Assembly: GCA_963734495.1 (NCBI GenBank)
Contig: CAVTHK010000013.1
Coordinates: 416,001 to 480,000 of the forward strand
DNA length: 64,000 nucleotides
Reading direction: 5' to 3'
Origin: an uncultured Spirochaetota bacterium
GTDB taxonomy: Bacteria; Spirochaetota; Spirochaetia; SZUA-6; CAVTHK01
In this document: piece by piece, positions 13,928 to 46,344 of the stretch
How positions within the stretch are numbered: position 1 is the first letter of the stretch
Layout of the letters: each line of letters begins with the position of its first letter
Notes under the pieces: model-generated
Seen by the model: the letters and a program-made list of their open reading frames with translations, nothing else
Told to the model about the DNA's origin: nothing
Databases searched by the model: none
Made by a program: the position numbers and the translations under genes

Positions 13928-14759
13928 CAGTCGTGCCTCCCGGGAGCGGTGGTCTCGAGCAGCCGCCGGATGAACACGTTGACCATGAACGCGCGGTACT
14001 CCTTTGTGCACCGCACGTCGTCGATCGGGCTGATGCGGGCCTGCGCCTCGGCCTCGATCTCCTCCACGGGCGCGTTTTCGGCGAAGTCCCTGAGGAGCAT
14101 CGGCGTGGGCGCGGCCGACCCGATGGCGAACCTGAGCACGCCGCCTTTCCTGAGCAGGGCCACCGTCACGATGCCAAGATCGTGGCCCTTGATGCGCTTG
14201 AGCTTGAGGTAGCCGCCCGCGGCCGTCCTGCATCTTCGCGGGTACGTAGAATCCTCTCGACGATCTCGTCGGGCGCGAGGACCGTCTTCTTGACGCCCTC
14301 GATGAAGCGCGCGAACGGGACGCGGCGCGAGCCGCGCTTCGACACGATCTCGACCTCCGCCTCGTAGCAGAGCAGCGGCCCGGAAAGGTCGCCGCACGGC
14401 GAGGCGGTGACGATGTTGCCGGCGACGGTGGCGCGGTTGCGCAGCGCGTGGGTGGCAAGCTCTGACGCGGCGGTATGGAGAAGCTGGTAGTGGCGGCTCA
14501 CGGCCTCGAGCGCGAGCAGCTCGCCCACCGTGACGCAGCCGCCGATCGAGAGGCCCTGCTTCGCGTCGTAGCCCAGCTCGCGCAGCGGCGCGATCCCCTT
14601 GAGGTCGACGACCACCTCGGGGCTGCCAAGCCCCGCCCGCAGCTCGACGAGCAGGTCGGTGCCGCCCGCGAGCGGCCGCGCACGCGGGCCGCTCGCGGCG
14701 AGCAGATCGAGCGCCTCCTCGAGCCGCGCGGGACGCCGATACGTGAACGAGCTCAGCAT
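13927..14759 (-). CDS. FAD-binding subunit of xanthine dehydrogenase-family enzyme, frameshift near 14230
   Basis: 'LAGGTDL', 'RNRATVAGN', 'SPIDDVRCTKEYR'. Confidence 0.9.
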
Positions 14760-14807
14760 GCCTGCACCTCGCTCAGCTCCGGCCGCATCCGCCGGCCGGA
14801 AGGCTCG

Positions 14808-25187: not shown

Positions 25188-25233
25188 CCGTCCGCGGTCC
25201 GCCGCCGGCTGCGGGGAGAGCCGCAGCCCGAGG

Positions 25234-25476
25234 ATGGTTCTGGTGGAGCAGGCCGTCGCAGGAAACCACGCCGTCATCGAGCCGTCGGAGTGCAAAGGCT
25301 GCAGGCTCTGTGTGGAGGCGTGCCCCAAGGGGTGCATCGAAGTCGGCTCGGAGATCAACGTCCTGGGCTACCAGTTCGCGCGCTTCGCAAAGCCGGGGTG
25401 CACGGCCTGCGGTCTCTGCTACTACGTCTGCCCCGAGCCCGGGGCCATCACGGTCGTCCGTTCGGGAACACGATGA
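25234..25476 (+). CDS. 2x[4Fe-4S] ferredoxin (delta subunit of 2-oxoacid:ferredoxin oxidoreductase)
   Basis: CKGCRLCVEACP and CTACGLCYYVCP. Confidence 0.92.
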   Translation: MVLVEQAVAGNHAVIEPSECKGCRLCVEACPKGCIEVGSEINVLGYQFARFAKPGCTACGLCYYVCPEPGAITVVRSGTR

Positions 25477-26552
25477 GCGTGCGCCTGGTCAAAGGGAACG
25501 AGGCGGTGGTGCAGGGCGCCCTCATGGGCGGCGCCACCCATTTTTTCGGCTACCCCATCACCCCGGCGAGCGAGATCGCCCACGCCGCCGCGCTGTATTT
25601 CCCGCAGGCGGGCAGGAGCTTTCTCCAGGCCGAATCGGAGGTCGCCTCGATCAACATGATCTACGGCGCGGCGGCGGGGGGCGCGCGCGCCATGACGGCC
25701 ACCTCGGGCCCGGGCGTCTCCCTCATGGCCGAGGGCCTCTCCTACCTCGCCGGAGCCGAGCTGCCCTGCGTGGTGGTGGACGTGCAGCGCGCCGGCCCCG
25801 GGCTCGGCAACATCTGGCCGGAGCAGAGCGACTATGCCGCGGTCGTCAAGGGCGGCGGGCACGGGAACTACCGCAACGTCGTGCTCGCGCCGAGCACGGG
25901 CCAGGAGATGTGCGACTTCGCCTACCGCGCTTTCGACATCGCCGACCGCTACCGGATGACGGTCTTTATCCTGGCCGACGCGTACGTGGGACAGATGATG
26001 GAGCCGGTCCGCCTCCCCCTCGAGCCCCGGCATGGCGAGCGCAAGCCGTGGGCCGTGTACGGGGACGCAGACAGCCGACCCAACCTCATCAGCTCCATCC
26101 TGATGAGCCCCGCCCTCCTGGAACGGCACAACCGCATGCTCCAGGAGAAGTATTCGCGCATGAGCGCGGACGTTCTCGAGTACGAGGAGACGCTGGTGGA
26201 GGACGCCGAGATCCTCTTCGTGGCCTACGGCATCACCGCCCGCATCTGCTCGAGCGCGGTCAGGCGCCTGCGCGGCCGCGGCGTCAGAGCCGGGATGCTG
26301 CGCCCCAGGACCCTCTTCCCCTTCCCGACGGAACGGATCCGTGCGCTCGCCCGGAGAGGCACCGCGCGGGCGCTGATCGCGGCGGAGCTCTCCGCGGGCC
26401 AGATGGCCGAAGACGTGGAGCTCGCCGCGGCCGGCGCGCTGCCGGTGCTCCGCTACGGCTGGCTCGGCGGCGTCGTCCCGACGGAGGGCGAGATCGAGGA
26501 GCGGGCCCTGCGGGACGCGGCGCTCGCCGGGCGCGTCAACGGAGTCGCCTGA
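25473..26552 (+). CDS. vorB: 3-methyl-2-oxobutanoate (ketoisovalerate):ferredoxin oxidoreductase alpha-type subunit
   Basis: 'KGNEA', 'FGYPITPASEI', 'QAESEVASINM', 'TSGPGVSL', 'RAGPGLGNI', 'KGGGHGNY'. Confidence 0.88.
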   Translation: MSVRLVKGNEAVVQGALMGGATHFFGYPITPASEIAHAAALYFPQAGRSFLQAESEVASINMIYGAAAGGARAMTATSGPGVSLMAEGLSYLAGAELPCVVVDVQRAGPGLGNIWPEQSDYAAVVKGGGHGNYRNVVLAPSTGQEMCDFAYRAFDIADRYRMTVFILADAYVGQMMEPVRLPLEPRHGERKPWAVYGDADSRPNLISSILMSPALLERHNRMLQEKYSRMSADVLEYEETLVEDAEILFVAYGITARICSSAVRRLRGRGVRAGMLRPRTLFPFPTERIRALARRGTARALIAAELSAGQMAEDVELAAAGALPVLRYGWLGGVVPTEGEIEERALRDAALAGRVNGVA

Positions 26553-27994
26553 TGGTCAAGCACGCCAAGCCCGCGAGCTTCTACGACGTCTTCTCCCGCA
26601 AGGGGGAGGGGCAGAAGGTGACGCACTACTGCCCGGGCTGCGGACACGGCACCGCGCACAAGCTCCTTGCGGAGGCGATCGACGAGCTCGGCATCCAGGA
26701 CAGGGTCGTCCTCTGCTCGCCGGTGGGCTGCTCGGTCTTCGCCTACTACTATTTCGACACCGGGAACGTGCAGTGCTCGCACGGCAGGGCGCCGGCCGTG
26801 GCCACCGGGCTGCGCCGCTCGCTTCCCGAGGCGGTGGTCGTGAGCTACCAGGGCGACGGCGACCTCGCGGGCATAGGCCTGGCCGAGATCATGCATGCCG
26901 CAAACCGCGGCGAGAACATCTCGGTCTTCTTTATCAACAACGCGATCTACGGCATGACGGGCGGGCAGATGGCGCCCACGACGCTTGTCGGCCAGGTCAC
27001 GCTGACCACCCCCTTCGGCCGATCGCTGCAGCACGACGGCGCGCCCATCGGCATGGCCGAGCTGATCTCATCGCTCGCCCTTCCGGCCTACGTCGAGCGC
27101 GTCTCCCTTGGAGACGGGCAGCGCATCCTGCGGGCGCGCAAGGCGTTCCGCAAGGCGCTCCAGTACCAGGTCGAGCGGCGCGGCTTCTCCTTTGTCGAGG
27201 TGCTGTCCCCCTGTCCGGTGAACTGGAAGATGAGCCCGAGCGAGGCGCGCACCTGGCTCATGGAAACGCTCGAGCAGACCTACCCGGTCCGGCTCTTCCG
27301 CGACGCGGAGTCCCTTCCCGCCGTGCAGGCCGCAGCACCGGCGCCCGCCGCGGGCGCGGCCGCGGGCGCGCCTCCGCGCGTCGTAGGCGACGACGGGCTC
27401 CGCTCCCTCTTTCTCGTGGAAAAGGACATCGAGGTCGTCGCGCGTCACGGCGAGGTGGCGGAACAGCAGGTGAGGATCGCGGGCTTTGGCGGGCAGGGGG
27501 TCATGTCGGCCGGGATCCTGCTCGCGAACTGCGCGGTGGCCGAGGACCTGCACGCGAGCTGGCTCCCCTCCTACGGTCCCGAGATGCGCGGCGGGACCGC
27601 CAACGCGAGCGTGGTCATCTCTTCGGAGGAGATCGGCTCGCCCGTGGTCGCGTCGCCCAACGTGCTCATCGCCATGAACGGCCCTTCGTTCGACACCTTT
27701 GCTCCGGCCGTGGCTCCCGGGGGGCTCATCGTGGCGAACTCGAGCCTCTTCCAGCCCGGGACGGAGCGCGGCGACGTGCGGGTTCTCGCGGTTCCCGCGA
27801 CCGAAATCGCGGGCCGCCTGGGCTTCGTCGGCGCCGCGAACGTCGTGGCGCTCGCCGCGTACATCGGCGCCTCCGGCGCGATCCGCCCCGAAACGCTGCG
27901 TCAGGTGGTGCCCCTCTCCATCAAGAAGCGGCAGTTCGCCGAGGTCAACCTCAAGGCCATCGAGGCGGGGCTGGAGTATGCAGCGAGACCATAG
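26552..27994 (+). CDS. 2-oxoacid:ferredoxin oxidoreductase fused beta (TPP-binding) + gamma subunit
   Basis: 'HYCPGCGHG', 'YQGDGDLAGIG', 'NNAIYGMTGGQ', an Ala/Pro linker, then 'AGFGGQG' and 'PSYGPEMRGGTAN'. Confidence 0.92.
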   Translation: MVKHAKPASFYDVFSRKGEGQKVTHYCPGCGHGTAHKLLAEAIDELGIQDRVVLCSPVGCSVFAYYYFDTGNVQCSHGRAPAVATGLRRSLPEAVVVSYQGDGDLAGIGLAEIMHAANRGENISVFFINNAIYGMTGGQMAPTTLVGQVTLTTPFGRSLQHDGAPIGMAELISSLALPAYVERVSLGDGQRILRARKAFRKALQYQVERRGFSFVEVLSPCPVNWKMSPSEARTWLMETLEQTYPVRLFRDAESLPAVQAAAPAPAAGAAAGAPPRVVGDDGLRSLFLVEKDIEVVARHGEVAEQQVRIAGFGGQGVMSAGILLANCAVAEDLHASWLPSYGPEMRGGTANASVVISSEEIGSPVVASPNVLIAMNGPSFDTFAPAVAPGGLIVANSSLFQPGTERGDVRVLAVPATEIAGRLGFVGAANVVALAAYIGASGAIRPETLRQVVPLSIKKRQFAEVNLKAIEAGLEYAARP

Positions 27995-29075
27995 GACGGC
28001 CGGCCCCCGCATCCTCGTCATCAACCCGGGATCCACTTCCACGAAGCTCTCGCTGTTCCGGGGCGAGGAGGAGCTGGATTCCGTCGCAGCTCCTTCACCG
28101 GCCGAGGAGCTGCGCGGCTTCGCGCGCATCTTCGAGCAGCTTCCCCTCCGCGCGCGGGCCGTCGAGGCCTTTCTGACGGAGTGCGAGGAGAAGGCGGCGC
28201 ATCTCGATGCCGCGGTCGCACGCGGAGGGCTCCTCCGCCCCCTGCAGAGCGGCGTCTACGTCGTGGACGAGGCGATGCTTCGCGATCTGGAGTCGGCCCG
28301 CTATGGGGAGCACGCGAGCAACCTGGGGGCTCCGCTCGCGCATGGGGTGGCCTCCCGGGCGGGCTGCCCCGCATTCATCGCGGACCCGGTCGTGGTGGAC
28401 GAGATGGACGACGTGGCGCGCCTCTCTGGCATGCCGGAGATCGAGCGCCGGAGCATCTTCCATGCCCTGAACCAGAAGTCCGCGGCTCGCGAGGTCGCCG
28501 CGCGCCTCGGCCGGCCCTACGAAGAGTGCCGCTTGATCGTGGCCCACATGGGCGGCGGCATCTCCGTAGGCGCGCACGCCGGCGGCCGCGTCATCGATGT
28601 GAACAACGCCCTGGACGGCGACGGCCCCTTTGCTCCCGAGCGCTCGGGCGGCGTTCCCGTCGGCGCGCTGGTAGAGCTCGCCGCGAGCGGAAAGCTCCCC
28701 ATCGAGGAGCTGCGCCGCAGGATCGTGGGGCGCGGCGGCCTGGTGGCCTACTGCGGCACGAACAGCCTGAAGGAGGCCCAGGACGCGGCGGACCGCGGCG
28801 ACCTGCGCGCCGCCCTCGCGATCGAGGCCATGGCCTACCAGGTTGCCAAGGAGGTGGCCATGCACGGCGCCACGCTCTCGGGGCGGGTCGACCGGATCAT
28901 CCTCACCGGAGGCATGGCGCAGGACGGGCGTTTCGTCCGACGCATCGTGGAGCGCGTCTCCTTTCTCGCCCCCGTGGAGGTGTTGCCGGGGGAGCGGGAG
29001 ATGCTGTCCCTGGCGCGCAACTGCCTCGCCGTGCTCACGGGGGCGCTGCAGCCGCGCAGGTACGGGCAGCCGTGA
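27978..29075 (+). CDS. buk: Butyrate kinase
   Basis: 'ILVINPGSTSTK', 'EHASNLG', 'DPVVVDE', 'FHALNQK', 'AHMGGGISVGAH'. Confidence 0.95.
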   Translation: MQRDHRTAGPRILVINPGSTSTKLSLFRGEEELDSVAAPSPAEELRGFARIFEQLPLRARAVEAFLTECEEKAAHLDAAVARGGLLRPLQSGVYVVDEAMLRDLESARYGEHASNLGAPLAHGVASRAGCPAFIADPVVVDEMDDVARLSGMPEIERRSIFHALNQKSAAREVAARLGRPYEECRLIVAHMGGGISVGAHAGGRVIDVNNALDGDGPFAPERSGGVPVGALVELAASGKLPIEELRRRIVGRGGLVAYCGTNSLKEAQDAADRGDLRAALAIEAMAYQVAKEVAMHGATLSGRVDRIILTGGMAQDGRFVRRIVERVSFLAPVEVLPGEREMLSLARNCLAVLTGALQPRRYGQP

Positions 29076-35222: not shown

Positions 35223-36509
35223 CTACAGCGCCCTGCTCGCCTTGATCGCGAAATAGGCGCTCGCGAGAGCGGGCGCCAGCTCCGCGGGGGTCACGTCCAG
35301 GCTCAGCAGCCCCGCCGCGCGCAGCAGCTCGATGTCGCGGCGCCTCCGCCCGAGGACGAGGCGCGCGGCCGAGACCCGCAGCGCCGAAGCGAGGTCGACG
35401 GGCTCCTCGGCGGGGAGGGCGTCGAGCGACGCCTCGCGGAGCGCGGCGAAGAGCACCAGGTGCCGCCGCGCGAGCGCTCGCGCGGCAGGCACGAGCCCGG
35501 GGGCCGCGCCGCCGGTGTTGCTGACGAGCACGATGAGCGAGCGCTTGCGCAACCGCGAGGCGACGTCCTCGAGCGCCTGGGCCGGGTCCGAGGCGTACAC
35601 CGTCGGCTCGATGTCGTAGGTCGCGTCGAGCAGCCGGTTCACGGCGGCCGCGCCCCTGCGAGGCGCCAGGCGGAGATCGACGCCGCCAAAGGTCGCGAGC
35701 CCGACGCTGTCACCCTGCCGGAGCGCCACGTGCGACAGCAGCAGGACCGCGTTCAGGGCATGGTCGAAGTGCGCCAGCTCGTCGTCCTTGGCGCGCATGC
35801 GCCTCCCGCAGTCGAGCAGGAGCATGACCTGCTGGCCCTGCTCGTCCTGGTACTCGCGCGCGATCAGCTGCAGGCGCTTCGAGGTCGCCTTCCAGTCGAT
35901 CTGGCCGGGCGGATCGCCGGGCCGGTATTCCCGGAGCTGGTGGAACTCGAGCCCGGTCCCTCGCCTGCGGCGCTTGTGGATCCCGAGCTGGTCCACACGC
36001 TGCCCCGCGGCGAGCAGGGAATAGCGCATGAGCGAAGCGAAGTCGGGGTAGACCCGCACATCCTGCGGCTGTCCGCAGGTCATGCGCCTGTGCCACAGCC
36101 CGAGCGGCGAGGCGGCCAGCACGGCCACGCCCTCGAAGCGTGCCCGGCCGCGGGCCACCGGAACCGCGCGGTAGTCGAGCCGCGCGACGGCCGTGGACGG
36201 GAGGAGGACCCTGATCGGAAGCCCTTCGGTCCTGAGACAGTCAGGGTGGTGATCGTGGACCAGGAGCCGGCAGGCGCGCGCGGAGCGCGAGCGCAGCGTC
36301 AGGCCGACCGTGACGTGCACCCCGAGGGCGAGCACCGGGGCGACGTCGCGCGTCACCTCCGGCCCGCGCATCATGCAGGCGAGGACGAAGTCCGCGGCGA
36401 GGGCAAGGCCCGCGGCCGCGGCGGCCGGCGCCCAGAGCGAAGGCCACGGGAGGAGCGCCAGCAGCGCGAAGGCGCCGCAGACGCCGAGCGCCGCCGGCGA
36501 AGGCCTCAT
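35223..36509 (-). CDS. DUF58 / vWA-like domain protein
   Basis: 'GLEFHQLREYRPGD...IDWKATS', 'LLDCGRRM'. Confidence 0.9.
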   Translation of the reverse strand: MRPSPAALGVCGAFALLALLPWPSLWAPAAAAAGLALAADFVLACMMRGPEVTRDVAPVLALGVHVTVGLTLRSRSARACRLLVHDHHPDCLRTEGLPIRVLLPSTAVARLDYRAVPVARGRARFEGVAVLAASPLGLWHRRMTCGQPQDVRVYPDFASLMRYSLLAAGQRVDQLGIHKRRRRGTGLEFHQLREYRPGDPPGQIDWKATSKRLQLIAREYQDEQGQQVMLLLDCGRRMRAKDDELAHFDHALNAVLLLSHVALRQGDSVGLATFGGVDLRLAPRRGAAAVNRLLDATYDIEPTVYASDPAQALEDVASRLRKRSLIVLVSNTGGAAPGLVPAARALARRHLVLFAALREASLDALPAEEPVDLASALRVSAARLVLGRRRRDIELLRAAGLLSLDVTPAELAPALASAYFAIKASRAL

Positions 36510-37519
36510 TCGCGCGGCGCCTCGACGGAGCCCAGCAGGTCGGCGATGAGCGCATCGGGCTTGTGGCCCTCGATCTCCATCTCCGGCGACACGACGACCC
36601 GGTGGCGGAGCGCCGGGAGCGCCACGGCCTTGACGTCGTCGGGAACGATAAAGGTCCTCTCCTCGAGCAGCGCCCGCACGCGGGCGGCCCGCACCAGGGC
36701 CAGGCTCCCGCGCGGCCCCGCACCCGTGGCGATCCCCGGCCACTCCCGGCTGCGGCGCACGATGCGCACCGCGTAGTCGACGACGCGCGGCGCGGCGCTG
36801 ACCCGGGCGGCCGCCTTCTGGATCCCGACGACGTCCTGCGGGCTCGCCACCGTCGCCACCGCCTCCAGCGGGAGATCGTCGCCGATGCGGCCCCCGGTCA
36901 CCCGCTCCACCATGGCGGCCTCCTGCTCGGCGCTCGGGTAGTCGATCTGGATCTTCAGCAGGAAGCGGTCGAGCTGGGCATCGGGCAGGGGGTAGGTCCC
37001 TTCGTGCTCGAGCGGGTTCTGCGTCGCCAGCGTCATGAACGGCGGCGACAGCGGGATCGACTCGCCCTCCAGGCTGACCTGCCGTTCCTGCATCACCTCC
37101 AGGAGCGCGGCCTGCGTCTTGGCGGGGGCCCGGTTGATCTCGTCCGCAATCAGGAGGTTCGTGAACACCGGCCCCCTGCGCGTCTCGAAGACGCCGCTCT
37201 TCATGTTGAACATCACGTGGCCCGTGATGTCGCTCGGCATCAGGTCGGGCGTGAACTGGACGCGGGCGACGCGGCCCCCGAAAGCTCGCGCCACGGAGCG
37301 CACCAGGAGGGTCTTGCCGAGCCCCGGCAGCCCCTCGACGATCACGTGGCCCGAGGCGAAGAGCCCGATCAGGACCTGGACGATCACTTCGTCCTGGCCG
37401 ACCACGCTCTTGCGGACTTCGGCCGTGATGGACCTGGCGAGCTGGGCACAGCGCGCGATCTCCCCGGCCGCGCCGGGGTCGCTCGATGCGGGCTGATTCT
37501 TCGGTTCCGTTTCACTCAT
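36506..37519 (-). CDS. moxR: MoxR family AAA+ ATPase
   Basis: 'EGLPGLGKT', 'QFTPDLMPSDITG', 'ADEINRAPAKTQAALLE', 'ATQNPLEHEGTYPLP'. Confidence 0.95.
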   Translation of the reverse strand: MSETEPKNQPASSDPGAAGEIARCAQLARSITAEVRKSVVGQDEVIVQVLIGLFASGHVIVEGLPGLGKTLLVRSVARAFGGRVARVQFTPDLMPSDITGHVMFNMKSGVFETRRGPVFTNLLIADEINRAPAKTQAALLEVMQERQVSLEGESIPLSPPFMTLATQNPLEHEGTYPLPDAQLDRFLLKIQIDYPSAEQEAAMVERVTGGRIGDDLPLEAVATVASPQDVVGIQKAAARVSAAPRVVDYAVRIVRRSREWPGIATGAGPRGSLALVRAARVRALLEERTFIVPDDVKAVALPALRHRVVVSPEMEIEGHKPDALIADLLGSVEAPRE

Positions 37520-38613
37520 GACGTGCGCCGTTCCCTTTCCATGGAGGCTACCGCCTCGACGAATCGCTTTTCCGGCAACCGTGCCGGGGTCTTCGCGGAG
37601 GAAGCGAGCTCGGCCGGGGCCGGCCCGGACCGGACCGGGCGCCGGCGCCGCAGGTCGCGCTCGAGGGACTCCCTCACGGCGGCGAGGAGCGCGTCCGCGT
37701 GCCGCGTGCGCCACAGGAAGCGACCCGTAGCTTCGACGTGCTCGCGAAGGCTGCGCCGCGGCGGCTCCCCGGCCCCGAGGACCGGCCCGAGCCGGGAGGC
37801 ACCCCGCCACACGAACGCGGCAAGCAGGCAGAAGACCCCGATGAGGGCGGCCGGCCTGGCGCGCCAGAGGACGGCCAGCAGGCCGGGGGCATCGTCGGAG
37901 GCGACGATAGTCACCGCCTTCCCGCCGGCGGCCTCCGTGACGAGGAGCCAGGCGAGGAACGCGTTGTCGTCCTCGCCGATGAGGGTGTTCTCGAGGAAGG
38001 CAGACGACGCGAGGACGGTCAGCGAGCCTCGACCTGTATTGAAATGAAGGATCATGGCGTCTTTGCCCGCGGGCACCCGCCAGTCGGCCTTCGCGCTGCC
38101 CTCGCGGAGGAGGACGCCTGCGACGAGGCGCGCGGTGAGAGCGGACCGACGGCCGGGCCAGGCGACCCGCGACGCGCCGGCGCCCCCGAACCCTTCGGCA
38201 GGGCGCGTGCGCACGTCGAAGGCGGCGAGCAGCGCGTCCTCGGCCCCCGCGTCCGCCGCTCCCGACGCGCCCGCGTTGGCGGCGACGATGAGGTGCCCGC
38301 CTGCACGCGCCCATTCGATCAGCTCCGGCACCCTCTGTTCGAGCGACCTGCGCGCGACCGGAACCAGCAGCGTCGCACCGGGAGGCGGGAGCGCCCCGAG
38401 GGCCGCACCCGGCTGCACCGTCTCGGCGGCGAGGCCGAGGCGCCGCATCATCAGCTCCGCCGCGAGGTACGGGTTGGCCCTGGCTTCGGGTCCGGGGCCG
38501 GTCTCGATCCATCGGGTCTCTCGTGCGAAGCCGGTGCGAAAGGCCACGGCCGCCAGGCCGACCACCACGACCGCAATCGCGGTCGCCGCCGCAACGGCTG
38601 CCGTGCGTTTCAC
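37516..38613 (-). CDS. DUF4350-like membrane-anchored protein
   Basis: N-terminal TM, 'EARANPYLAA', 'GRGSLTVLA', 'DNAFLA', C-terminal TM then 'RLGP..RRSLREHVEA'; position in the MoxR cluster. Confidence 0.75.
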   Translation of the reverse strand: MKRTAAVAAATAIAVVVVGLAAVAFRTGFARETRWIETGPGPEARANPYLAAELMMRRLGLAAETVQPGAALGALPPPGATLLVPVARRSLEQRVPELIEWARAGGHLIVAANAGASGAADAGAEDALLAAFDVRTRPAEGFGGAGASRVAWPGRRSALTARLVAGVLLREGSAKADWRVPAGKDAMILHFNTGRGSLTVLASSAFLENTLIGEDDNAFLAWLLVTEAAGGKAVTIVASDDAPGLLAVLWRARPAALIGVFCLLAAFVWRGASRLGPVLGAGEPPRRSLREHVEATGRFLWRTRHADALLAAVRESLERDLRRRRPVRSGPAPAELASSAKTPARLPEKRFVEAVASMERERRTS

Positions 38614-40115
38614 CGCGCGCCCCCGATCATCCCGGCCGCCCGGCCGCGAAGCTCGTCGAATACCCGCCGCTCCGGCGCGTCCTGGCCATAGGCGGCGCGG
38701 GCCCAGGCCTGCGCAGCGCTCTCGAGCAGCGACTGCTCGGGTGAGCCGGGGACCAGGTCCCGGACCCGACGGACGCATTCGCCCTCGGTCAGGCTCGCAG
38801 GCAGGTCGATCCCGGCCCGCACCGCGATCGTCGCGAGCGTCCCCCGATAGAGGAGGCTCAGGGCGCGCAGCGAGTCGCCGGCTTCCCAGGCGCGGGCCGC
38901 GGCTCCTGGCCAGTCCCGGGGCAGAGGCTCGGGGCCGACGATCCGCGCGTCCGCGCCGCGCAGGGGCGCCGGCCCCGGCGCGGCAGCGCCGCGCCGCCGG
39001 AGCTGCCGCCGGCCGCGGTAGAGGAGCCACGCGAGCAGCACCGTCGCGCCGCCGCCGAGCACCCACGGGGCGGCGTCCGCGACAAAGGTCGCCACGACCG
39101 CAAGGGGCCCCGCATCGGAGCTGCCGCGGGCCGAGCTCGTCTGCGAGGAGCTCCAGCGAGGACGCCAGAAGACCTGCTGCCGCCGCCCGCCGAACTCCTG
39201 GTCGGCGAGGACCTCGGCGATCGCGCGGCTCACCCGCGCGGCGTCGTCGCTCCCGGGAGGCTGCGCGGGAGGCTGCGCCAGAGGCTGCGCCGGCGCCTGC
39301 GCGGCCGCGGCCCACAGCCCGGCCGCCAGCGCGAGCGCGGCTCCCGCCCGCCGCGGCGCGGGGCCACTGCCGCCGCGCGCCAGCCTGCGGGCCATCCGCC
39401 GGAACACGAGCTCGATGTCCCAGCCCTCCAGCGTCACGCGGCGGTTGATGTAGAGCGTGAACCCCGCGCAGACGACGAACGGCCTCATGAGCACGAACGA
39501 CGCGACCCACAGGCAGTAGGCCAGGGGGCCCGTCAGGCGCTGCAGCTCGCGAAAAGCGGCGAGAAACACATCCTCCACTACGCCCTGGCGGGCGACCTCG
39601 AAGACGAAGAACAGCGCGCCGAGCCATGCCGCGATCTCGAAGACGAGCATCGCAGCCGCGAGCCCCGACGCCGCCCATCGACCCGAGCGCGCCACCGCCC
39701 GCAGCCGCCGGGACAGCCCCGCGCCGGCGATGCCTTCGAGCTGACGCACGGGCGCGAGATAGCACCGCCACGGGGTGAGGCGCCTCCAGGAGAGGTCGCC
39801 GGCGAGGTGAGGCAGGAGGGCCGACGCGAGGCCGGCTCTCAGGGAAGAGACAGACGGAGACTCGCCCAGGAACAGCCGGCTCGCCAGGAGCAGCGGCAGC
39901 CGCTCGCACGCGGGCAGCAGCCACCAGAACGCAGCCATCGCGAGACCGGGCCATCGCGCCAGGAGAACGCCGCATGCCACGGCGACCGGGACCGCCGTGA
40001 CGGCGACGGAAAGCAGGAAGGCGGGGAAATGGCGCCGGGCCAGGGCAAGCCCGACGTCGACCGCCTCGGCGGCGGTGCGCTCACGAATGGCGACGCTGAT
40101 CCGCTCGTAGTCCAT
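38610..40115 (-). CDS. Membrane protein with C-terminal DUF4129-like domain
   Basis: 'GFTLYINRRVTLEGWDIEL', 'ALSLLYRG', 'SLTEGEC', 'WARAAYG'. Confidence 0.75.
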   Translation of the reverse strand: MDYERISVAIRERTAAEAVDVGLALARRHFPAFLLSVAVTAVPVAVACGVLLARWPGLAMAAFWWLLPACERLPLLLASRLFLGESPSVSSLRAGLASALLPHLAGDLSWRRLTPWRCYLAPVRQLEGIAGAGLSRRLRAVARSGRWAASGLAAAMLVFEIAAWLGALFFVFEVARQGVVEDVFLAAFRELQRLTGPLAYCLWVASFVLMRPFVVCAGFTLYINRRVTLEGWDIELVFRRMARRLARGGSGPAPRRAGAALALAAGLWAAAAQAPAQPLAQPPAQPPGSDDAARVSRAIAEVLADQEFGGRRQQVFWRPRWSSSQTSSARGSSDAGPLAVVATFVADAAPWVLGGGATVLLAWLLYRGRRQLRRRGAAAPGPAPLRGADARIVGPEPLPRDWPGAAARAWEAGDSLRALSLLYRGTLATIAVRAGIDLPASLTEGECVRRVRDLVPGSPEQSLLESAAQAWARAAYGQDAPERRVFDELRGRAAGMIGGAR

Positions 40116-41064
40116 GCGTACGCCCGCTCAAAGCGAGATATGCGCCGACGGCCACGGCCGCGACGACAGCCGCGGCGTACTTGACCGCGGGAGCCAGCGG
40201 CAGCGGCGACCAGAACGCCTCGATGACGGCCGCCAGCACGAGCATCGCGGCCGCGCCCGGCACCAGCGCGACGCATTCGCGGGCGGCCTTTCGCAAGGCG
40301 TCGCGGCGCGCGAGGCCGCCCGGCGACACCAGCGACCAGCCGAGGCGCAGGCCGGCCACCGCGAGGAGCACGGTAGCGCCGAGCTCCAGGGCGCTGTGGC
40401 CGCTCACGAAGGGAAAGAAGGTCCCGGAGAAGCCCCGGTTCACCAGGTGCCCCGTCACGGCCCCGAGAAAGACGCCGTTGTAGAGCAGGATGAGGATGCT
40501 CCCCACGCCAAAGAGGACCCCGCCGGCGAAGACCCGGAACCCGATGCTCGCGTTGTTAGCCACGTAGAAACCGAACATCTCGACGCGCGATCGGCTGTCG
40601 ACGGGACGGAGGAACGTCCTGGAGGCCGGGTCGTACATGGATTCGATCCGTCGCACGGCCTCCGGGTACAGGATCGAGTACACCAGCGCGGGGCTTCGGC
40701 GGACGGCGAGCGCGGTCGCGGCGATCGAGCCGAAGAACAGCGCAAAGGCGATCGCCAGCAGAGCCCAGTGCCGCCGTACGGTCGCGGGGAAGTCATGGGC
40801 GACCCACCGCGCGGCATCATTCCAGCTCACCGAGCGGCCCTTGTACAGCTGCTGATGGGCCCGGAGGGCAAGGCCGTTGAGACGCTCGACGAGCTGCACG
40901 TCGAAGAGCCGGTCGCGGGCGACCGACAGGTCGTCGCAGAGCTCCCCATAGAGCACGGGGAACGCGTCGGCCTCCCGCGTGTCGCGGCGCTCGAGGGCGC
41001 GGACCAGTTCCTCCGTCCGACGCCACCTCCCCTCGCCCGCCGCGCGGAACGTCTCCTGCCTCAC
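40081..41064 (-). CDS. Stage II sporulation protein M (SpoIIM)-like membrane protein
   Basis: 'MFGFYVANNASIGF', 'FVSGHSALEL', 'AAVIEAFWS'. Confidence 0.85.
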   Translation of the reverse strand: MRQETFRAAGEGRWRRTEELVRALERRDTREADAFPVLYGELCDDLSVARDRLFDVQLVERLNGLALRAHQQLYKGRSVSWNDAARWVAHDFPATVRRHWALLAIAFALFFGSIAATALAVRRSPALVYSILYPEAVRRIESMYDPASRTFLRPVDSRSRVEMFGFYVANNASIGFRVFAGGVLFGVGSILILLYNGVFLGAVTGHLVNRGFSGTFFPFVSGHSALELGATVLLAVAGLRLGWSLVSPGGLARRDALRKAARECVALVPGAAAMLVLAAVIEAFWSPLPLAPAVKYAAAVVAAVAVGAYLALSGRTHGLRADQRRHS

Positions 41065-41783
41065 GCCCCGCCTCCCCGCTGCCCGGTGATCCAGGACGCC
41101 AGGCCGGCGATCGCCGCCACCGGGTCGGTGCGCGCTTCGGGCCGCGCGTCCACCAGCGCGGCCACCGGCTCGGCGAGCTCGCGGGCGCGGCCTTCGCCGA
41201 GGAACGGCGCCCGCTCGGCGAACCGCACGACGGCCTTCTGCTCCATCAGCGTGAGGGCGACCGCCGGCGCCGCGGCCTGCGCGCCGCCCCGCGAAGCCGC
41301 CTGCCACACCGGCGCGCCGCCGTCGCGGTAGACCACGAGCGTCCCCGCCGCGAGGTCGCCGAGGCGGCGGAACCCGCGGGTCGCGAGCATCGTCACCAGT
41401 GCCGTCACGGGCACCAGGGGAAGCATGTCGGCCGCGCGCAGCAGGTTGCGGATCAGGGAAGCAGCCGCGTCCACCGGCAGCCCGCTGGCCCGCACGACCT
41501 GCAGCCGGAACAGCGCCTTTCCCGGCGTCGCCCCTCCGCGCAGCAGCTCGAAGGCCACCGGGTAGAACCAGGTCACAGCGAACGCCAGGACATACGAGAT
41601 GCCGCTTCCCACCGCGCCGCCGAACGAAAGGGGAACCACGAGGAGCAGCAGGAGGAGAAACTGCAGGAACGAGTCGAAGAGCCACGCGCCCAGGCGCGTG
41701 ACCGGACCGGCGGGCCGAAGCTCCAGGATCACGCCCTCGGGTGTCTCGACCGGGAAGACGGTGTCGAGGTAGGTCGAGGCCAT
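41061..41783 (-). CDS. RDD family protein
   Basis: 'VETPEGV', 'RLGAWLFD', 'GATPGK', 'IRNLLRAAD', 'RRLGDLAAGTLVV'. Confidence 0.9.
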   Translation of the reverse strand: MASTYLDTVFPVETPEGVILELRPAGPVTRLGAWLFDSFLQFLLLLLLVVPLSFGGAVGSGISYVLAFAVTWFYPVAFELLRGGATPGKALFRLQVVRASGLPVDAAASLIRNLLRAADMLPLVPVTALVTMLATRGFRRLGDLAAGTLVVYRDGGAPVWQAASRGGAQAAAPAVALTLMEQKAVVRFAERAPFLGEGRARELAEPVAALVDARPEARTDPVAAIAGLASWITGQRGGGA

Positions 41784-41804
41784 GGCGAGCGACCGGGGCG
41801 CCCT

Positions 41805-42320
41805 TCAGCGCCGCGCCGCGCCGGACACCGCGGCCACCACCCCCGCCACGGAGATGCCGAGGACGAGAAGCACTCCCAGGCCCAGCCCGACGATGACCAG
41901 GATGCCGGCGGTCCGCCAGAAGGAGGCCTGCCTGCGGAGCGCCTCCTCGATGGACGCCGCGCCGCCCTGCGAGAAGACCCGACCGATGGCGCCGGCGTAG
42001 CGGTGCAGCTGCAGCGTCGGAAGCAGATAGGCGACCGCGGCGACCACGAGATATGCCACGATCCCAAGCGCCGCCGCCCACCCTCCCACTTCGCCGGAGG
42101 CGCCGAAGATGGCGGCGCCCGCCATGATCACGCCGAACAACCCCAGGAACCCTGTGCCGATAAAGCCCAGAACGGAAAGAAACCGGACCCAGGGCCGCGT
42201 GGCCTTGAGCTGCTCGAGCATCGAGACGGTTACGCTCGCGCCCTCCAGCGCGAGGTTACCCTGAGGCGGGGAGACCTCGGTCGCGGGAGACTGATACGGG
42301 TTCGGCTCCGACACGGTCAT
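41805..42320 (-). CDS. Membrane protein, DUF5362-like
   Basis: 'NPYQSP' N-terminus, 'LKATRPWVRFLSVLGF', 'ALRRQASFW', three TM segments. Confidence 0.6.
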   Translation of the reverse strand: MTVSEPNPYQSPATEVSPPQGNLALEGASVTVSMLEQLKATRPWVRFLSVLGFIGTGFLGLFGVIMAGAAIFGASGEVGGWAAALGIVAYLVVAAVAYLLPTLQLHRYAGAIGRVFSQGGAASIEEALRRQASFWRTAGILVIVGLGLGVLLVLGISVAGVVAAVSGAARR

Positions 42321-42509
42321 GCCTCCTCGGATGCGCGACGGCCGCGATCGCGGAAGCGCCGCGGCCGCGTACCGCCGATCAGCCTATGGCCCCTCGCCTC
42401 CGCGGTCAAGTCGATTTCGCGCCGGCTGCCGATTTCGCGCCCGCTCATGGAGAAAGACCCGCTGTTGACTGCCGGCCGCGGGCAGGCCTAATTTCGTCGA
42501 GGGGACCTC

Positions 42510-43875
42510 ATGAAAGCGATCAATCCCGCCACGGGCGCGGTCATCGGCAATCACCCGGAGCTCACGGAATCTGCGGCGGCCGAGCGGCTCGAGGCGGCCG
42601 GCGTTGCCGCGAAAGCGTGGGCCGAAGCGTCCGGGGCCGAGCGCAGCCGGCTGATGAAAGCCGCCGCCGCCGTCCTCAAGGCCCGCCGCGATGCGCTCGC
42701 CCTCATCGTCACCGACGAGATGGGCAAGCCGGTCCGCGAAAGCCGCGCCGAGATCGAGAAGTGCATTCTGGTCTGCGAATACTTCGCGGACAGGGCCGCG
42801 GAGTTCCTGGCGGACGAGCCGGTCGAGACCGATGCCCGCAGGAGCCTCGTGGTCTACCGGCCCCTCGGCGTCATCCTCGCGGTCATGCCGTGGAACTACC
42901 CATTCTGGCAGGCATTCCGCGCCGCGGTGCCGGCTCTCATGGCGGGCAACGTCGTGGCGCTCAAGCACGCCTCAAACGTCCCCGGCTGCGCCCTCGCCAT
43001 CGAGAGCGTGTTCCGGGACGCCGGCTTTCCCCCCGGAGCCTTCACCACGCTGCTGGTGGGAAGCGGCGCCGTCCCCGCGCTCATCCGCCACCCCGCGGTC
43101 CGCGCGGTCACCCTGACCGGAAGCACGGCCGCGGGCGAGTCGGTCGCGGCCGAGGCGGGCCGCTGCCTCAAGAAGAGCGTGCTCGAGCTCGGCGGCAGCG
43201 ACGCGTACCTCGTCCTCGAGGACGCCGACCTGGACCTCGCGGCAAAGACCTGCGTGGCCGCGCGCCTCGCCAACTGCGGACAGAGCTGCATCTCGGCCAA
43301 GCGCCTGATCGCCGTCGACCGCGTCTTTGCCGAGATCGAGGAGCGGATACGTCAATGAAATGAAGAAGGTCGCCCCCGGCGACCCCCGCGACGAGGCCGC
43401 GAAGATGGGCCCGATGGCGCGCGGCGATCTGCGCGACGACCTCCACGGCCAGGTGCGCAGGAGCATCGACGCGGGCGCGCGCTGTCTCCTCGGCGGCAAG
43501 GTGCCCGCGGGTCCCGGATCGTTCTATCCGCCGACGCTGCTCACGGGAGTGCGCAAGGGCATGCCCGCGCACGACGAGGAGGTCTTCGGGCCCGTCGCGT
43601 GCCTCATCCGCGCCCGCGACGAGGAGGACGCCATCCGGATCGCGAACGACTCGCCGTTCGGGCTGGGCGCCGCGGTCTTTACGCGCGACGCGGCGCGCGG
43701 CGAGCGCATCGCGGCCGACCGCCTCGAGGCCGGCGCCTGCTTCGTGAACGCGATGGTCCGCTCCGACCCGCGGCTCCCCTTTGGCGGCATCAAGACGAGC
43801 GGCTACGGCCGCGAGCTGGCGCGGCACGGCATCCGCGAGCTCGTGAACGCGAAGACCGTGTACGTCGGCGGCTGA
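42510..43875 (+). CDS. NAD(P)-dependent aldehyde dehydrogenase (Sad/GabD1-like), frameshift near 43350
   Basis: 'INPATG', 'VMPWNYP', 'LKHASNVP', 'LELGGSD', 'GQSCISAKR', 'EEVFGP', 'PFGGIKTSGYGRE'. Confidence 0.92.
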
Positions 43876-43966: not shown

Positions 43967-43995
43967 TTGACCCCGGCGCGCGGCGGGAGTAATGT
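43967..43995 (+). promoter_or_regulatory. Sigma70-type promoter TTGACC-N17-TAATGT for the GNAT-thiolase-DUF35 operon
   Basis: -35 at 43967-43972, -10 at 43990-43995, GAGGAGG RBS before ATG 44029. Confidence 0.55.
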
Positions 43996-44028
43996 TGCCG
44001 CGCTCACAAATCCCTCGAGGAGGAGCCC

Positions 44029-44721
44029 ATGGCTGTTGACGAGCTCGAGAAGAAACTCAGGCCGCCCGAGCTGCAGATGGCGCCCTACCCCGCCAAGGTC
44101 ATCACGCTGGCCAACGGCGAGAAGATGGTGGTGCGCGAAGCGAAACGCGAGGAGGTCGGCGCCCTCCTCGGCACGATCTACCCGCTGCTCGGCGTCGCCA
44201 AGGACTTCTACGACGTGGTCGCCGCGCGCATGTACGCCGAGGTGCTCGGCTGGTTCCGCTACCGCGTGGCCAACGAGTTCGTGCTCGTCGGCGCGATCGA
44301 CGGCGAGATCGCCGGCATCGTCAACAGCCGCATGTGGGACGCGAAGCGCGGCATCAGCCTTCACACGATGACCATCAGGCGCGGCCTGCGCATCGGGGCG
44401 CAGCTGTTCGCCGCCAAGATGGAGCACCACATCGAGTACCTCAAGCAGGACGAGGTGAACATCGTCGCGGAGAGCCCGATCGGCTTCCGGCGGTGGATGA
44501 TCGAGTACCAGCTCGAGGACAGGAGCGGGAGCTACCCCGGCCTGCAGCACGAGCTCGGCGGCGTGCCCACCTTCACCCTGACCCGTGACCTCTACTTCAA
44601 GGCGAAGGCCGAGAAGGTCACGGGGACGCGCCCCGTCCCGGCCGACGTGCTTGCGACCGCGAACAAGCTGCGCATGCCGGAGACCTACCCGCAGATCCCC
44701 GGCTTCAAGAGGGGCAAGTGA
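44029..44721 (+). CDS. GNAT-fold (N-acetyltransferase-like) protein
   Basis: 'VVREAKREE', 'LVGAIDGEIAGIV', motif-A-like 'RRGLRIGAQLF'. Confidence 0.6.
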   Translation: MAVDELEKKLRPPELQMAPYPAKVITLANGEKMVVREAKREEVGALLGTIYPLLGVAKDFYDVVAARMYAEVLGWFRYRVANEFVLVGAIDGEIAGIVNSRMWDAKRGISLHTMTIRRGLRIGAQLFAAKMEHHIEYLKQDEVNIVAESPIGFRRWMIEYQLEDRSGSYPGLQHELGGVPTFTLTRDLYFKAKAEKVTGTRPVPADVLATANKLRMPETYPQIPGFKRGK

Positions 44722-45947
44722 TGGCCGCCCGCGTAGGCGTGGTGGGCATCGGGCACACGGCCTTCGGAAACCTGAGCGACTACGAGCTCACGGACATCCT
44801 CGCCTACGCGTCGACCGACGCGCTGCTCGACGCGGGGATCCTCGAGGAGCGGCGCATCGTCGACCAGGTCATCGTCGGCAACATGGCGTCCGGGCTCTTC
44901 AACCACCAGAGCGGCATCGCGTCGGCCATGGTGAGCAAGCTCGACATGGAGCCGGTGCCCGCCGAGCTCGTGGAGAACGGCCCCGCGAGCGGCGCGAGCG
45001 CGATCAAGATCGGGTACATGGCGATCGCGAGCGGCATGGCCGACGTGGTGCTCGTGACGGCGGGCGAGCTCATGCGCAAGGTCACGGGCTGGCTCGCCAC
45101 GGACTACGTGGCGACGCTGCTGCACCCGCAGGCCGAGTACGACATGGGGCTGACGCTGCCCGCGTTCGGCGGGATGCTCGCGCGCCTGTACATGGAGCGC
45201 TACGGGGCGACGGAGCGCGACCTCGCGCTGGTCGCGGTCAAGGACCACGACAACGGGGCGAAGAACCCGTACGCGCACGTGCGCGGCACCTGCACGATCG
45301 ACGCGATCCACGACAACCCGAACGCGCACGTCGTCAACAACTACGTGGCCGAGCCGCTGCGCATCTACAGCATGTGCCCGGTCTCGGACGGCGCGGCGAG
45401 CCTCGTGCTCGCCAACCTCGACTCGCCGAAGATCAAGCACTTCCGCAAGCCGCCGGTCCTCATCTCCGGGATCGCGTCGGCCACCGACACGCACTGCGTG
45501 CACCACAGGGCCGACCCGCTGGCTCTGAACGCGGTGCGCCTGAGCGCCGAAAAGGCGTACGCGATGGCCGGCCTCAAGCCGTCGGACATCAGCTTCGCCG
45601 AGCTGCACGACGCCTTCGTCATCCTCGAGATCTGCATCAGCGAGGAGGTCGGCTTCTTCGAGAGGGGCAAGGGGTACCTCGCCGTGCGCGAGGGAGCGAC
45701 GGCTCTCAGCGGGCGCCTCCCGATCAACACCTCCGGCGGGCTCAAGGCCAAGGGGCACCCGGTCGGCGCCACGGGCGTGTCGCAGGTCTTCGAGCTGGTC
45801 AAGCAGCTTCGCGGCGAGTGCGAGAAAGAGGGCCGGCAGGTGAAGAACGCGAAGCACGGCCTCGCCGTCAACTTCGGCGGGTTCGGCAACAACGTGGTCA
45901 CGACCATATGCTCAGCGCTGCCGGACGGCGCGAAGGGCAAGAGGTAG
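44721..45947 (+). CDS. Thiolase-fold protein (SCP-x/archaeal type) lacking the nucleophilic Cys
   Basis: 'VGVVGIGHT.FG', 'AVKDHDNGAKNPYAH', 'CPVSDGAA', 'AELHDAF', 'PINTSGGLKAKGHPVGATG'; ENGPASG where ENACASG is expected. Confidence 0.92.
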   Translation: MAARVGVVGIGHTAFGNLSDYELTDILAYASTDALLDAGILEERRIVDQVIVGNMASGLFNHQSGIASAMVSKLDMEPVPAELVENGPASGASAIKIGYMAIASGMADVVLVTAGELMRKVTGWLATDYVATLLHPQAEYDMGLTLPAFGGMLARLYMERYGATERDLALVAVKDHDNGAKNPYAHVRGTCTIDAIHDNPNAHVVNNYVAEPLRIYSMCPVSDGAASLVLANLDSPKIKHFRKPPVLISGIASATDTHCVHHRADPLALNAVRLSAEKAYAMAGLKPSDISFAELHDAFVILEICISEEVGFFERGKGYLAVREGATALSGRLPINTSGGLKAKGHPVGATGVSQVFELVKQLRGECEKEGRQVKNAKHGLAVNFGGFGNNVVTTICSALPDGAKGKR

Positions 45948-45951
45948 CGGC

Positions 45952-46344
45952 ATGATCGATTTCAGCGTCTACGACGTCAAGAAGCCCGAGATCCACGCCG
46001 TCCGCTGCCCCAAGTGCGGAAAGCTCGACTATCCCGCGCCCATGATCTGCAAGGGGTGCGGCACGCGGCGCGACCCTTCGGGGATCAAGGCGCCGGACTG
46101 GGAGAAGGTCGCGCTCGAGGGACCCTGCAAGCTGCTCACGTGGACCAAGGTGTACGCCCTGCCCGAGGGTTACGAGAAGCCGTTCCTCCTGTTCGGCATC
46201 GTCGAGATGGCCAACGGCCTGCGGGCCGCCGGCCGCCTCGAGGTCGACCAGCCGAAGAGCGGGATGGCGCTCGAGGCGACCGTCGAGGTTTCCGACGAGC
46301 GGCCGGGCCGCGAGGTGAACATCTTCGTGTTCAAGCAGGGGTAG
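45952..46344 (+). CDS. DUF35 family Zn-ribbon/OB-fold protein
   Basis: CPKC...CKGC ribbon followed by OB-fold 'LLTWTKV...PEGYEKPFLLFGIVEM'. Confidence 0.88.
   Translation: MIDFSVYDVKKPEIHAVRCPKCGKLDYPAPMICKGCGTRRDPSGIKAPDWEKVALEGPCKLLTWTKVYALPEGYEKPFLLFGIVEMANGLRAAGRLEVDQPKSGMALEATVEVSDERPGREVNIFVFKQG

Follow-up and report, generated by a model that had tools for sequence, protein, structure and literature searches.

An uncultured Spirochaetota bacterium (assembly GCA_963734495.1) carries three adjoining genes that encode a predicted GNAT-fold protein (P1), a thiolase-like protein without the catalytic cysteines of thiolases, and a DUF35 protein. They lie in a 64,000-nucleotide stretch of its contig CAVTHK010000013.1 (positions 416,001 to 480,000), referred to below as the window. 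The trio recurs with the same gene order in many anaerobic bacteria from a range of phyla, and it is quite likely to be a module of a nucleobase-type catabolic gene set. It is probably a variant of the multi-component enzymes built from thiolase-like and DUF35 proteins, working in a new pathway. Full-text literature searches, with most subscription journals and supplements outside their scope, found no description of the trio or of its cluster and no characterised example of the combination, as an earlier note made from the sequence alone had supposed.

Gene layout of the trio

The three genes are co-directional, intact and packed into positions 44029-46344 of the forward strand. They were picked by a filter on the third-position G+C of open reading frames, the lists of which are crowded because the window has a G+C content of about 70%. 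The elements of the locus are as follows.

44029-44721, forward strand: P1 gene, 230 aa, predicted GNAT-fold product
44721-45947, forward strand: thiolase-like gene, 408 aa from the ATG
45952-46344, forward strand: DUF35 gene, 130 aa
44017-44025, forward strand: Shine-Dalgarno-like GAGGAGGAG, 3 nt 5' of the P1 start codon, read from the sequence

The P1 stop codon overlaps the thiolase-like start in a TGATG, with an in-frame GTG at 44718 just 5' of the thiolase-like ATG (44721), and 4 nt separate the thiolase-like gene from the DUF35 gene. Gene content, position, overlap and gap are as the earlier note had described them, and the strong ribosome-binding site that it had claimed corresponds to the stretch at 44017-44025. 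It was also right that the trio is free of frameshifts: all three genes align end to end with their homologues at the trio loci compared, in unbroken frames, while neighbouring genes of this assembly are frameshifted. The promoter that the operon was said to have of its own found no such support. A scan for the sigma-70 consensus 5' of P1 had no match on the forward strand, and a TTGACC-17 nt-TAATGT arrangement spotted by eye in this region scores under the threshold of that scan. Each of the three genes was found just once in the bacterium's own genome.

Conservation across genomes

Conservation was assessed in the best 80 of 198 stretches with a P1 relative from a collection of species-representative genomes. 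A thiolase-like gene stands directly 3' of P1 in 80/80 of these loci, and a DUF35 gene comes next in 75/80; at the five others the DNA ends 0-5 bases after the thiolase match, so the DUF35 gene is present at 75/75 of the loci that reach that far. Both genes are thus the constant neighbours of orthologous GNAT genes that the earlier note had suggested looking for. Identities across phyla range from 59 to 92% for P1 and from 51 to 94% for the thiolase-like protein, and the trio appears to be under purifying selection. Its carriers include Spirochaetota, Verrucomicrobiota, Kiritimatiellia, Lentisphaerae, Caldisericota and Chloroflexota, as well as Thermoanaerobaculaceae, Sumerlaeota, Eisenbacteria, Gemmatimonadota and others. 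A Sphaerochaeta isolate (L044) is a cultured carrier, and Gracilinema caldarium, represented here by a metagenome-assembled genome (L014), is a cultured species among them; since cultured carriers exist, the question of function is directly testable.

The GNAT-fold protein P1

Scans of P1 with the Pfam and NCBIfam models returned no family, and no GNAT model at E<=1. A PDB sequence search with P1 gave two phosphinothricin acetyltransferases alone (E about 1), and one with the profile of its family gave a single chance match (E 0.54). The structure was predicted by AlphaFold2 from a 30-sequence alignment, with a predicted local distance difference test score (pLDDT) of 93.3 and a predicted template modelling score of 0.90. 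With this model Foldseek found 218 PDB matches at E<=0.001; the matches listed are GNAT-type acyltransferases or uncharacterised proteins, the best being the GNAT domain of PatZ (E 7e-7). Alignment with VIA-align gave Z>=8 for 784 of 999 chains; PA3270 (8gxj_A) superposes with Z 14.5 and a root-mean-square deviation of 2.9 Å over 163 aligned residues, covering P1 residues 14-197. Independently of the structure search, the ESM Atlas clusters nearest to P1 carry the label 'N-acetyltransferase', and Acetyltransf_1 is weakly matched in 5/30 family members (best E 0.0096). The predicted structure confirms P1 as a GNAT-fold protein of a family without a Pfam or NCBIfam model. Beyond the GNAT core it has an N-terminal helix and a further stretch in its last ~30 residues, which are the extensions that the earlier note had ascribed to it.

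The pyrophosphate-binding motif of GNAT proteins, R/Q-x-x-G-x-G/A, follows strand beta4. At this site P1 has R-G-L-R-I-G, with an arginine replacing the middle glycine, and distant members of the family have the canonical R-G-A-G-I-G. In the family alignment R101 is invariant, and S110, H112, T113, G123, K130, E148, S149, H174, E175, G177 and G178 are near-invariant. Going by the model, P1 may be a transferase of the acyl-coenzyme A (acyl-CoA) type, which would use CoA. Its relatives number 3119 at E<=0.001 in a 90%-clustered database, with 176 representatives at 50% clustering; among the best 120 of the 3119, those with names are all 'hypothetical' and none has a Pfam domain. Three longer proteins among 2544 candidates had the appearance of P1-thiolase fusions and were rejected as garbled read-throughs from frameshifted high-GC contigs.

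A thiolase-like protein without catalytic cysteines

The second protein matches Thiolase_N (1.4e-25, 90.6 bits) and Thiolase_C_1 (4.5e-43, 146.9 bits), both above the Pfam cut-off, and its best NCBIfam model is PRK06064, at 391 bits against a cut-off of 420. The PDB sequence matches include 7yvy (7e-76), 4yzo (1e-68) and 6esq (2e-63), and the protein is closest to archaeal or SCP-x-type thiolases. Pro88 aligns with the nucleophilic cysteine of 7yvy and 6esq, in agreement with the missing nucleophile of the earlier note. The second catalytic cysteine, found in the HDCF motif of 6esq, is replaced by alanine (HDAF), as it is in 7yvy. Because the nucleophile is a proline and the acid/base cysteine an alanine, thiolase chemistry should be impossible for this protein. 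The oxyanion-hole motifs GHP (H346) and NxSGG (N336) are kept, and both residues, which we take to be the oxyanion-hole histidine and asparagine, are invariant. Counted in homologous sequences long enough to show the motif, NGPASG is present in 80/80, LHDAF in 76/76, GHP in 75/75 and NxSGG in 76/76, and a 26-sequence alignment has about 90 invariant columns. Such strong constraint argues for a working active site and not a decayed one. Stabilisation of an acyl-CoA enolate is needed both in malonyl-CoA decarboxylation and in the retro-aldol step of Ltp2-type enzymes, and a thiolase fold that has lost its cysteines and kept its oxyanion hole could still provide it.

The DUF35 protein and related enzyme systems

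By sequence, the third protein stays below the Pfam cut-offs (zf-ChsH2, 21.0 against 23.2 bits; OB_ChsH2_C, 19.3 against 27.1 bits), and its best NCBIfam match is BbsA (2e-7, 30.8 bits). Cysteines C19, C22, C33 and C36 of a zinc ribbon are conserved, and the four-cysteine pattern occurs in 72/75 homologues. The AlphaFold2 model (pLDDT 87.6) shows the ribbon followed by an OB fold. Foldseek returned 19 matches at E<=0.001; those listed are of the DUF35 type, mostly subunits of thiolase-like complexes, and the top ones are the DUF35 subunits of 6esq, 7pxp, 9vbt/9vbo, 6ok1, 5m3k and 9myr. The predicted fold thereby confirms the DUF35 zinc-ribbon/OB protein that had been named in the earlier note.

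In all solved DUF35 complexes DUF35 docks on thiolase-like subunits, and the third partner is 3-hydroxy-3-methylglutaryl-CoA (HMG-CoA) synthase, a ketosynthase-III-like protein, a hydratase or none, and never a GNAT. No gene of the HMG-CoA synthase/ketosynthase-III fold was seen in the annotated flanks of the trio, whose third gene encodes the GNAT fold. A complex prediction for the thiolase-like and DUF35 proteins with P1 as partner, run without controls, reached scores of 0.25 and 0.02 where the mark was 0.32, and weighs neither for nor against a complex. The three proteins may bind each other and channel acyl-CoA, which gene linkage alone (80/80) does not show.

Several characterised systems share parts of this composition. 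The archaeal complex of acetoacetyl-CoA thiolase, HMG-CoA synthase and DUF35 (6esq) likewise has three components with DUF35 as scaffold; its chain 6esq_F is the best structural match of the DUF35 model (E 2e-6), and its thiolase is closely related in sequence (2e-63). The archaeal enzyme keeps the two catalytic cysteines (CASG, HDCF), whereas the thiolase-like protein of the trio has neither, and the third partner is HMG-CoA synthase, in mevalonate biosynthesis, instead of a GNAT. The C-acyltransferases PhlABC and MucABC (5m3k, 9vbo/9vbt, 9skh) also combine a thiolase-like subunit, DUF35 and a third subunit, and they act without CoA on cyclic 1,3-dicarbonyl substrates; barbiturate can be seen as a nitrogen analogue of phloroglucinol. 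PhlC, which uses an active-site cysteine, matches the thiolase-like protein at 4e-22; the third subunit of these enzymes is ketosynthase-III-like and their role biosynthetic, in contrast to the GNAT and catabolic context of the trio. Benzoylsuccinyl-CoA thiolase BbsAB (7pxp) pairs a thiolase-like protein with DUF35 in anaerobic catabolism, and the DUF35 model matches 7pxp_E. BbsAB has two components, however, its thiolase contains the cysteine, and the trio proteins score far under the BbsA and BbsB cut-offs. The 'putative acyl-CoA acyltransferase' 4yzo, second-best PDB sequence match of the thiolase-like protein (1e-68), also lacks both cysteines: its nucleophile column has serine where the trio has proline, and HDMA stands at the site of HDCF.

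The steroid side-chain aldolases Ltp2-ChsH2 (6ok1) and Sal-Shy (9myr) resemble the trio in having a thiolase-fold subunit with a DUF35 domain, and they presumably lack the thiolase cysteines too. Their likeness raises the alternative that the thiolase-like/DUF35 pair cleaves C-C bonds as a lyase of the retro-aldol or retro-Claisen kind, with a 3-hydroxy- or 3-oxo-acyl-CoA that the GNAT makes or hands over as its substrate. Ltp2 and Sal are sequence relatives of the thiolase-like protein (6ok1_A, 8e-29; 9myr_A, 3e-21), the DUF35 model matches 6ok1_B (E 6e-6) and 9myr_B (E 4e-5), and the oxyanion-hole histidine and asparagine required for enolate chemistry are retained. The match to 6ok1_A is, however, far weaker than those to true archaeal thiolases (7e-76), to which the protein is much closer. 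In Ltp2-ChsH2 and Sal-Shy the DUF35 domain is part of a hydratase protein in steroid degradation, whereas the trio has a free-standing DUF35, a GNAT as third partner and a context of nucleobase catabolism. No hydratase partner of the MaoC type was found in the loci examined, and the neighbouring enzymes point to no obvious hydroxyacyl-CoA intermediate. A lyase of this kind is rather doubtful.

Association with nucleobase-type catabolic genes

The context of the trio was read from Pfam and NCBIfam scans of the flanks and from tblastn over the 80 loci, within 6 kb of the trio. The genes found are listed with the number of loci.

Xanthine-dehydrogenase-family hydroxylase, flavin adenine dinucleotide (FAD) subunit: 46/80 loci
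Xanthine-dehydrogenase-family hydroxylase, 2Fe-2S subunit: 43/80 loci
Xanthine-dehydrogenase-family hydroxylase, molybdenum subunit: 37/80 loci
FdrA-AllG, fused in many cases: 43/80 loci
PF04199 'cyclase' amidohydrolase, mostly directly 5' of P1: 36/80 loci
AllH: 26/80 loci
GntR regulator: 24/80 loci
NCS2 permease, best NCBIfam model uracil permease: 12/80 loci
Carbamate kinase: 7/80 loci
At least one context gene, GntR excluded: 56/80 loci

On an Eisenbacteria chromosome, P1, the thiolase-like gene, the DUF35 gene, the hydroxylase, FdrA-AllG, the cyclase and AllH form one co-directional run. The most consistent companions of the trio belong to the FdrA, AllG, AllH and carbamate kinase families of the Escherichia coli oxamic transcarbamylase AllFGH and its kinase AllK. 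According to PMC11326118, AllFGH makes oxamate and carbamoyl phosphate from oxalurate and phosphate, and thereby feeds carbamate kinase. The E. coli operon follows allantoin genes and has no GNAT, thiolase-like, DUF35 or cyclase-family gene; in trio clusters, unlike E. coli, FdrA and AllG are often fused and lie beside a molybdenum hydroxylase. Searched by term, the main texts of papers on the 2,8-dioxopurine pathway, on the reductive uric-acid pathway and on a purine module (2013) mention no thiolase, DUF35, cyclase, FdrA or AllG.

The association is also seen at the level of whole genomes. In a sample of 301 genomes from the phylum of the window, P1 is present in 19 and AllG in 24, and 18/19 P1 genomes have both, the remaining one being 78% complete. 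In a second phylum (301 genomes, centred on G003 and including G003 and G005, chosen as known trio carriers), P1 is present in 8 and AllG in 20, with both in 8/8. AllG occurs in 6/282 and 12/293 of the genomes without P1 in the two phyla, respectively, and was matched in 1/14 control genomes. Pooled, 26/27 P1-bearing genomes have AllG; these counts express an association to which no P value is attached because related genomes are not independent.

The window and its genome show the same set in dispersed form. A xanthine-dehydrogenase-family hydroxylase was located in the window by tblastn and Pfam.

11472-14774, reverse strand: genes for the molybdenum, 2Fe-2S and FAD subunits of the hydroxylase, frameshifted

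The hydroxylase proteins of L014 and L031 match it by tblastn at 43-73% identity in split high-scoring segment pairs, it has the Pfam domains MoCoBD_1/2 and FAD_binding_5, and it is related to the hydroxylase that directly adjoins the trio in other genomes. Synteny in those genomes suggests that it serves in the same functional set as the trio. Cyclase, FdrA-AllG and permease genes lie on the same contig, 25-30 kb beyond the trio (C13:486473-493922), and carbamate kinase on a different one. When this genome's genes for the hydroxylase, the cyclase, FdrA-AllG and the uracil-permease-like protein are aligned to intact homologues, they all give several segment pairs in different frames, which suggests frequent indel errors in an assembly that is 83% complete in 18 contigs. 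The trio is compact, as the 'self-contained' operon of the earlier note would have it, but it appears to belong to a larger conserved gene set for nucleobase catabolism.

The earlier note had further linked the trio to an aldehyde dehydrogenase encoded on its 5' side, and the trio might be a free-standing acyl-CoA system outside nucleobase catabolism, whose aldehyde product this enzyme would oxidise. In the window the trio does stand alone between the aldehyde dehydrogenase gene and a convergent 5'-nucleotidase gene, and 24/80 loci have no context gene inside 6 kb. However, genomes with such a lone trio (Verrucomicrobiota/Lentisphaerae) carry AllG elsewhere in 3/3 cases, with FdrA-AllG beside a cyclase gene in 2/2 whose AllG region was fetched, and the count of 26/27 given above also speaks against this reading. 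The link to the aldehyde dehydrogenase fails because its gene is split by a frameshift and because 116 loci hold a single weak match (25% identity, L004); it was rejected as a pathway partner, and a free-standing system of this kind is very improbable. The gene occupies two overlapping frames on the forward strand (42492-43358 and 43309-43875), and the break near 43309-43358 is a frameshift from either a pseudogene or an assembly indel.

Dihydropyrimidine-dehydrogenase-like pairs, or a PreT-like half, were noticed by GNAT or trio clusters of several lineages, in L094/L095 (817-3436), L060 (350-2814), L004 (11537-12634) and L053 (3581-5804). These genes hint once more at pyrimidines, or else at a reductive branch. 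On the 5' side of a Spirochaete cluster (L002, 3-1685, forward strand) is a gene for an amidase of the AtzE family, which resembles 1-carboxybiuret/allophanate hydrolases.

Paralogues of P1 and the position behind the GNAT gene

A group of P1 paralogues (P0144-like, ~245 aa, 35-42% identity) was found at 26 loci on metagenome contigs. Thirteen of the 26, several of them closely related, have cyclase, FdrA, AllG, AllH, hydroxylase or permease genes, to which L094 and L095 add PreT/PreA-like dihydropyrimidine dehydrogenase genes, L106 a nucleoside phosphorylase gene and L109 XdhC. The GNAT therefore emerges as a core companion of the carbamoyltransferase/amidohydrolase set. The earlier note had held that GNAT homologues occurring independently of the thiolase would speak against its idea; this is the case for the distant paralogues, 24/26 loci of which lack the thiolase-like and DUF35 genes in the fetched DNA, and not for the orthologues, linked in 80/80. 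The remaining two (L115, L116) hold a separate complete trio. The GNAT is thus not strictly dependent on these partners.

At L091-L093 and L108 the P1 paralogue stands directly 5' of a carboxyltransferase gene, followed by a biotin carrier and OAD_beta, and at L109 OAD_beta adjoins a run of FdrA, AllG, cyclase and P1-like genes. Together, carboxyltransferase, biotin carrier and OAD_beta would make a Na+-pumping decarboxylase of the acyl-CoA type. The position behind the GNAT gene seems to be filled either by the thiolase-like/DUF35 pair or by this biotin-dependent enzyme. Two further genes, one for DUF5714 and one for a lipoate/biotin-protein-ligase-like product, are found repeatedly between those of the hydroxylase and the GNAT paralogue (L100, 2334-4050; L115, 5791-7507).

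The same loci bear on the idea that P1 assists or regulates the FdrA-AllG-AllH enzyme, with the thiolase-like and DUF35 proteins as a lineage-specific addition in a separate role. PatZ fuses a succinyl-CoA-synthetase-like part to a GNAT, and its GNAT domain is the top Foldseek match of P1 (E 7e-7). The paralogues keep FdrA, AllG, AllH and cyclase neighbours without a thiolase, and P1 almost never occurs without AllG, whereas AllG occurs without P1. PatZ is just rank 38 by VIA-align Z against P1, however; the linkage of P1 to the thiolase-like gene in 80/80 loci, together with the overlap of stop and start codons, points to a joint function; and E. coli AllFGH is active without any GNAT (PMC11326118). 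A pairing of this sort is quite unlikely.

Proposed function

It is possible, and proposed here tentatively, that the trio works in an anaerobic pathway for N-heterocycles, most likely uracil or another pyrimidine, in which the GNAT loads a malonyl-type acyl group on CoA and the thiolase-like/DUF35 pair decarboxylates it. Uptake of the nucleobase would be followed by hydroxylation, in the simplest case of uracil to barbiturate, and by amide ring opening to an acylurea. Phosphorolysis by the AllFGH-like carbamoyltransferase would then yield carbamoyl phosphate and, through carbamate kinase, ATP, leaving a malonyl-type C3 unit bound to nitrogen. GNAT proteins move acyl groups between the sulfur of CoA and nitrogen, and P1 would move the (methyl)malonyl-type group to CoA from the nitrogen of an acylurea or amide. 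Without a covalent intermediate, the cysteine-less thiolase/DUF35 pair would decarboxylate the resulting acyl-CoA to acetyl- or propionyl-CoA. Decarboxylation is favoured for this pair because it alternates with the biotin decarboxylase.

Several points weigh against this proposal. The hydroxylase and the permease fall under every NCBIfam equivalog cut-off, which leaves the substrate open. The 24/80 lone loci include that of the window itself, and in its own genome the hydroxylase lies ~30 kb and the cyclase/FdrA-AllG pair ~25 kb from the trio. In some loci, dihydropyrimidine-dehydrogenase-like genes replace or accompany those of the hydroxylase, and a malonyl intermediate fits them less well. 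The thiolase-like and DUF35 genes are absent from most paralogue loci, as described above, and the adjacency of the biotin decarboxylase is known from about two lineages. Known decarboxylating ketosynthase-like proteins have glutamine or serine at the position of the nucleophile, not proline. Acyl transfer onto CoA from the nitrogen of an amide or acylurea runs counter to the normal direction of GNAT chemistry, and we know of no precedent for it.

The decarboxylation could also be the work of P1. GNAT-fold decarboxylases have His/Thr or His/Ser pairs, which S110, H112 and T113 on strand beta4 of P1, together with the conserved H174-E175, resemble. P1 would then be the catalyst, for instance as a decarboxylase akin to the CurA loading domain or to malonyl-CoA decarboxylase, or as an N-acyltransferase for an amine of the pathway, and the thiolase-like/DUF35 pair a non-catalytic scaffold for binding CoA. 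The loss of both catalytic cysteines and the occurrence of P1 paralogues alone in the same kind of cluster fit such an arrangement. Yet GNAT-fold decarboxylases are not among the 50 best VIA-align matches of P1 listed, a second, biotin-type decarboxylase beside the paralogues would be redundant, and the invariance of NGPASG (80/80) and of ~90 further residues in 26 sequences goes beyond the needs of a scaffold. This division of labour is considered unlikely.

The pyrimidine pathway with a decarboxylating thiolase-like/DUF35 pair can be extended to a bolder form, to which a small chance is given: the trio may form the CoA-dependent core of a new anaerobic route that breaks down oxidised pyrimidines and conserves energy, in that both energy-rich bonds are saved. 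A barbiturate-like ring (a cyclic diacylurea), or its acylurea product, would be cleaved such that one bond is conserved as carbamoyl phosphate, via the AllFGH-like enzyme and carbamate kinase, and the other as a malonyl-type CoA thioester, by the GNAT in reverse. The thioester would be channelled in a DUF35-scaffolded complex to the cysteine-free thiolase-fold decarboxylase, or, in sister clusters, to the Na+-pumping biotin decarboxylase.

Other genes of the window and sequencing data

On the 5' side of the aldehyde dehydrogenase gene, positions 36506-42383 of the reverse strand hold genes for a MoxR-type AAA ATPase and for DUF4129, RDD-family and DUF5362-like proteins, which appear to be unrelated to the trio. 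Positions 25188-29075 of the forward strand hold a pyruvate:ferredoxin-oxidoreductase-like gene and one that matches the acetate kinase profile in its C-terminal half alone (profile positions 173-343) and may be another broken gene.

None of the public sequencing runs holds more than 0.15 of the sampled words, and the contigs found stem from relatives. Run X14, from an RNA library, contains contigs of 154-235 nt with ~94-97% identity to parts of the P1 and thiolase genes, none of them spanning two genes; carry-over of DNA is possible, and these contigs are no evidence of transcription.

Significance

Enzymes built from thiolase-like and DUF35 proteins are a small and mechanistically rich class, with members that serve in mevalonate channelling or act as Friedel-Crafts acylases or steroid aldolases. 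New chemistry would come to this class with a member that has a GNAT for its third partner and neither cysteine in its thiolase fold. A name for the P1 family would provide an annotation for genes of Spirochaetota, Verrucomicrobiota, Chloroflexota, Acidobacteriota, Sumerlaeota and other phyla. The gene set suggests that nucleobases serve fermenting bacteria of sediments, wetlands and digesters as a source of ATP and nitrogen, by a route that would extend the recently identified AllFGH carbamoyltransferase beyond allantoin. If the energy-conserving form of this route were true, up to two ATP would be obtained per base.

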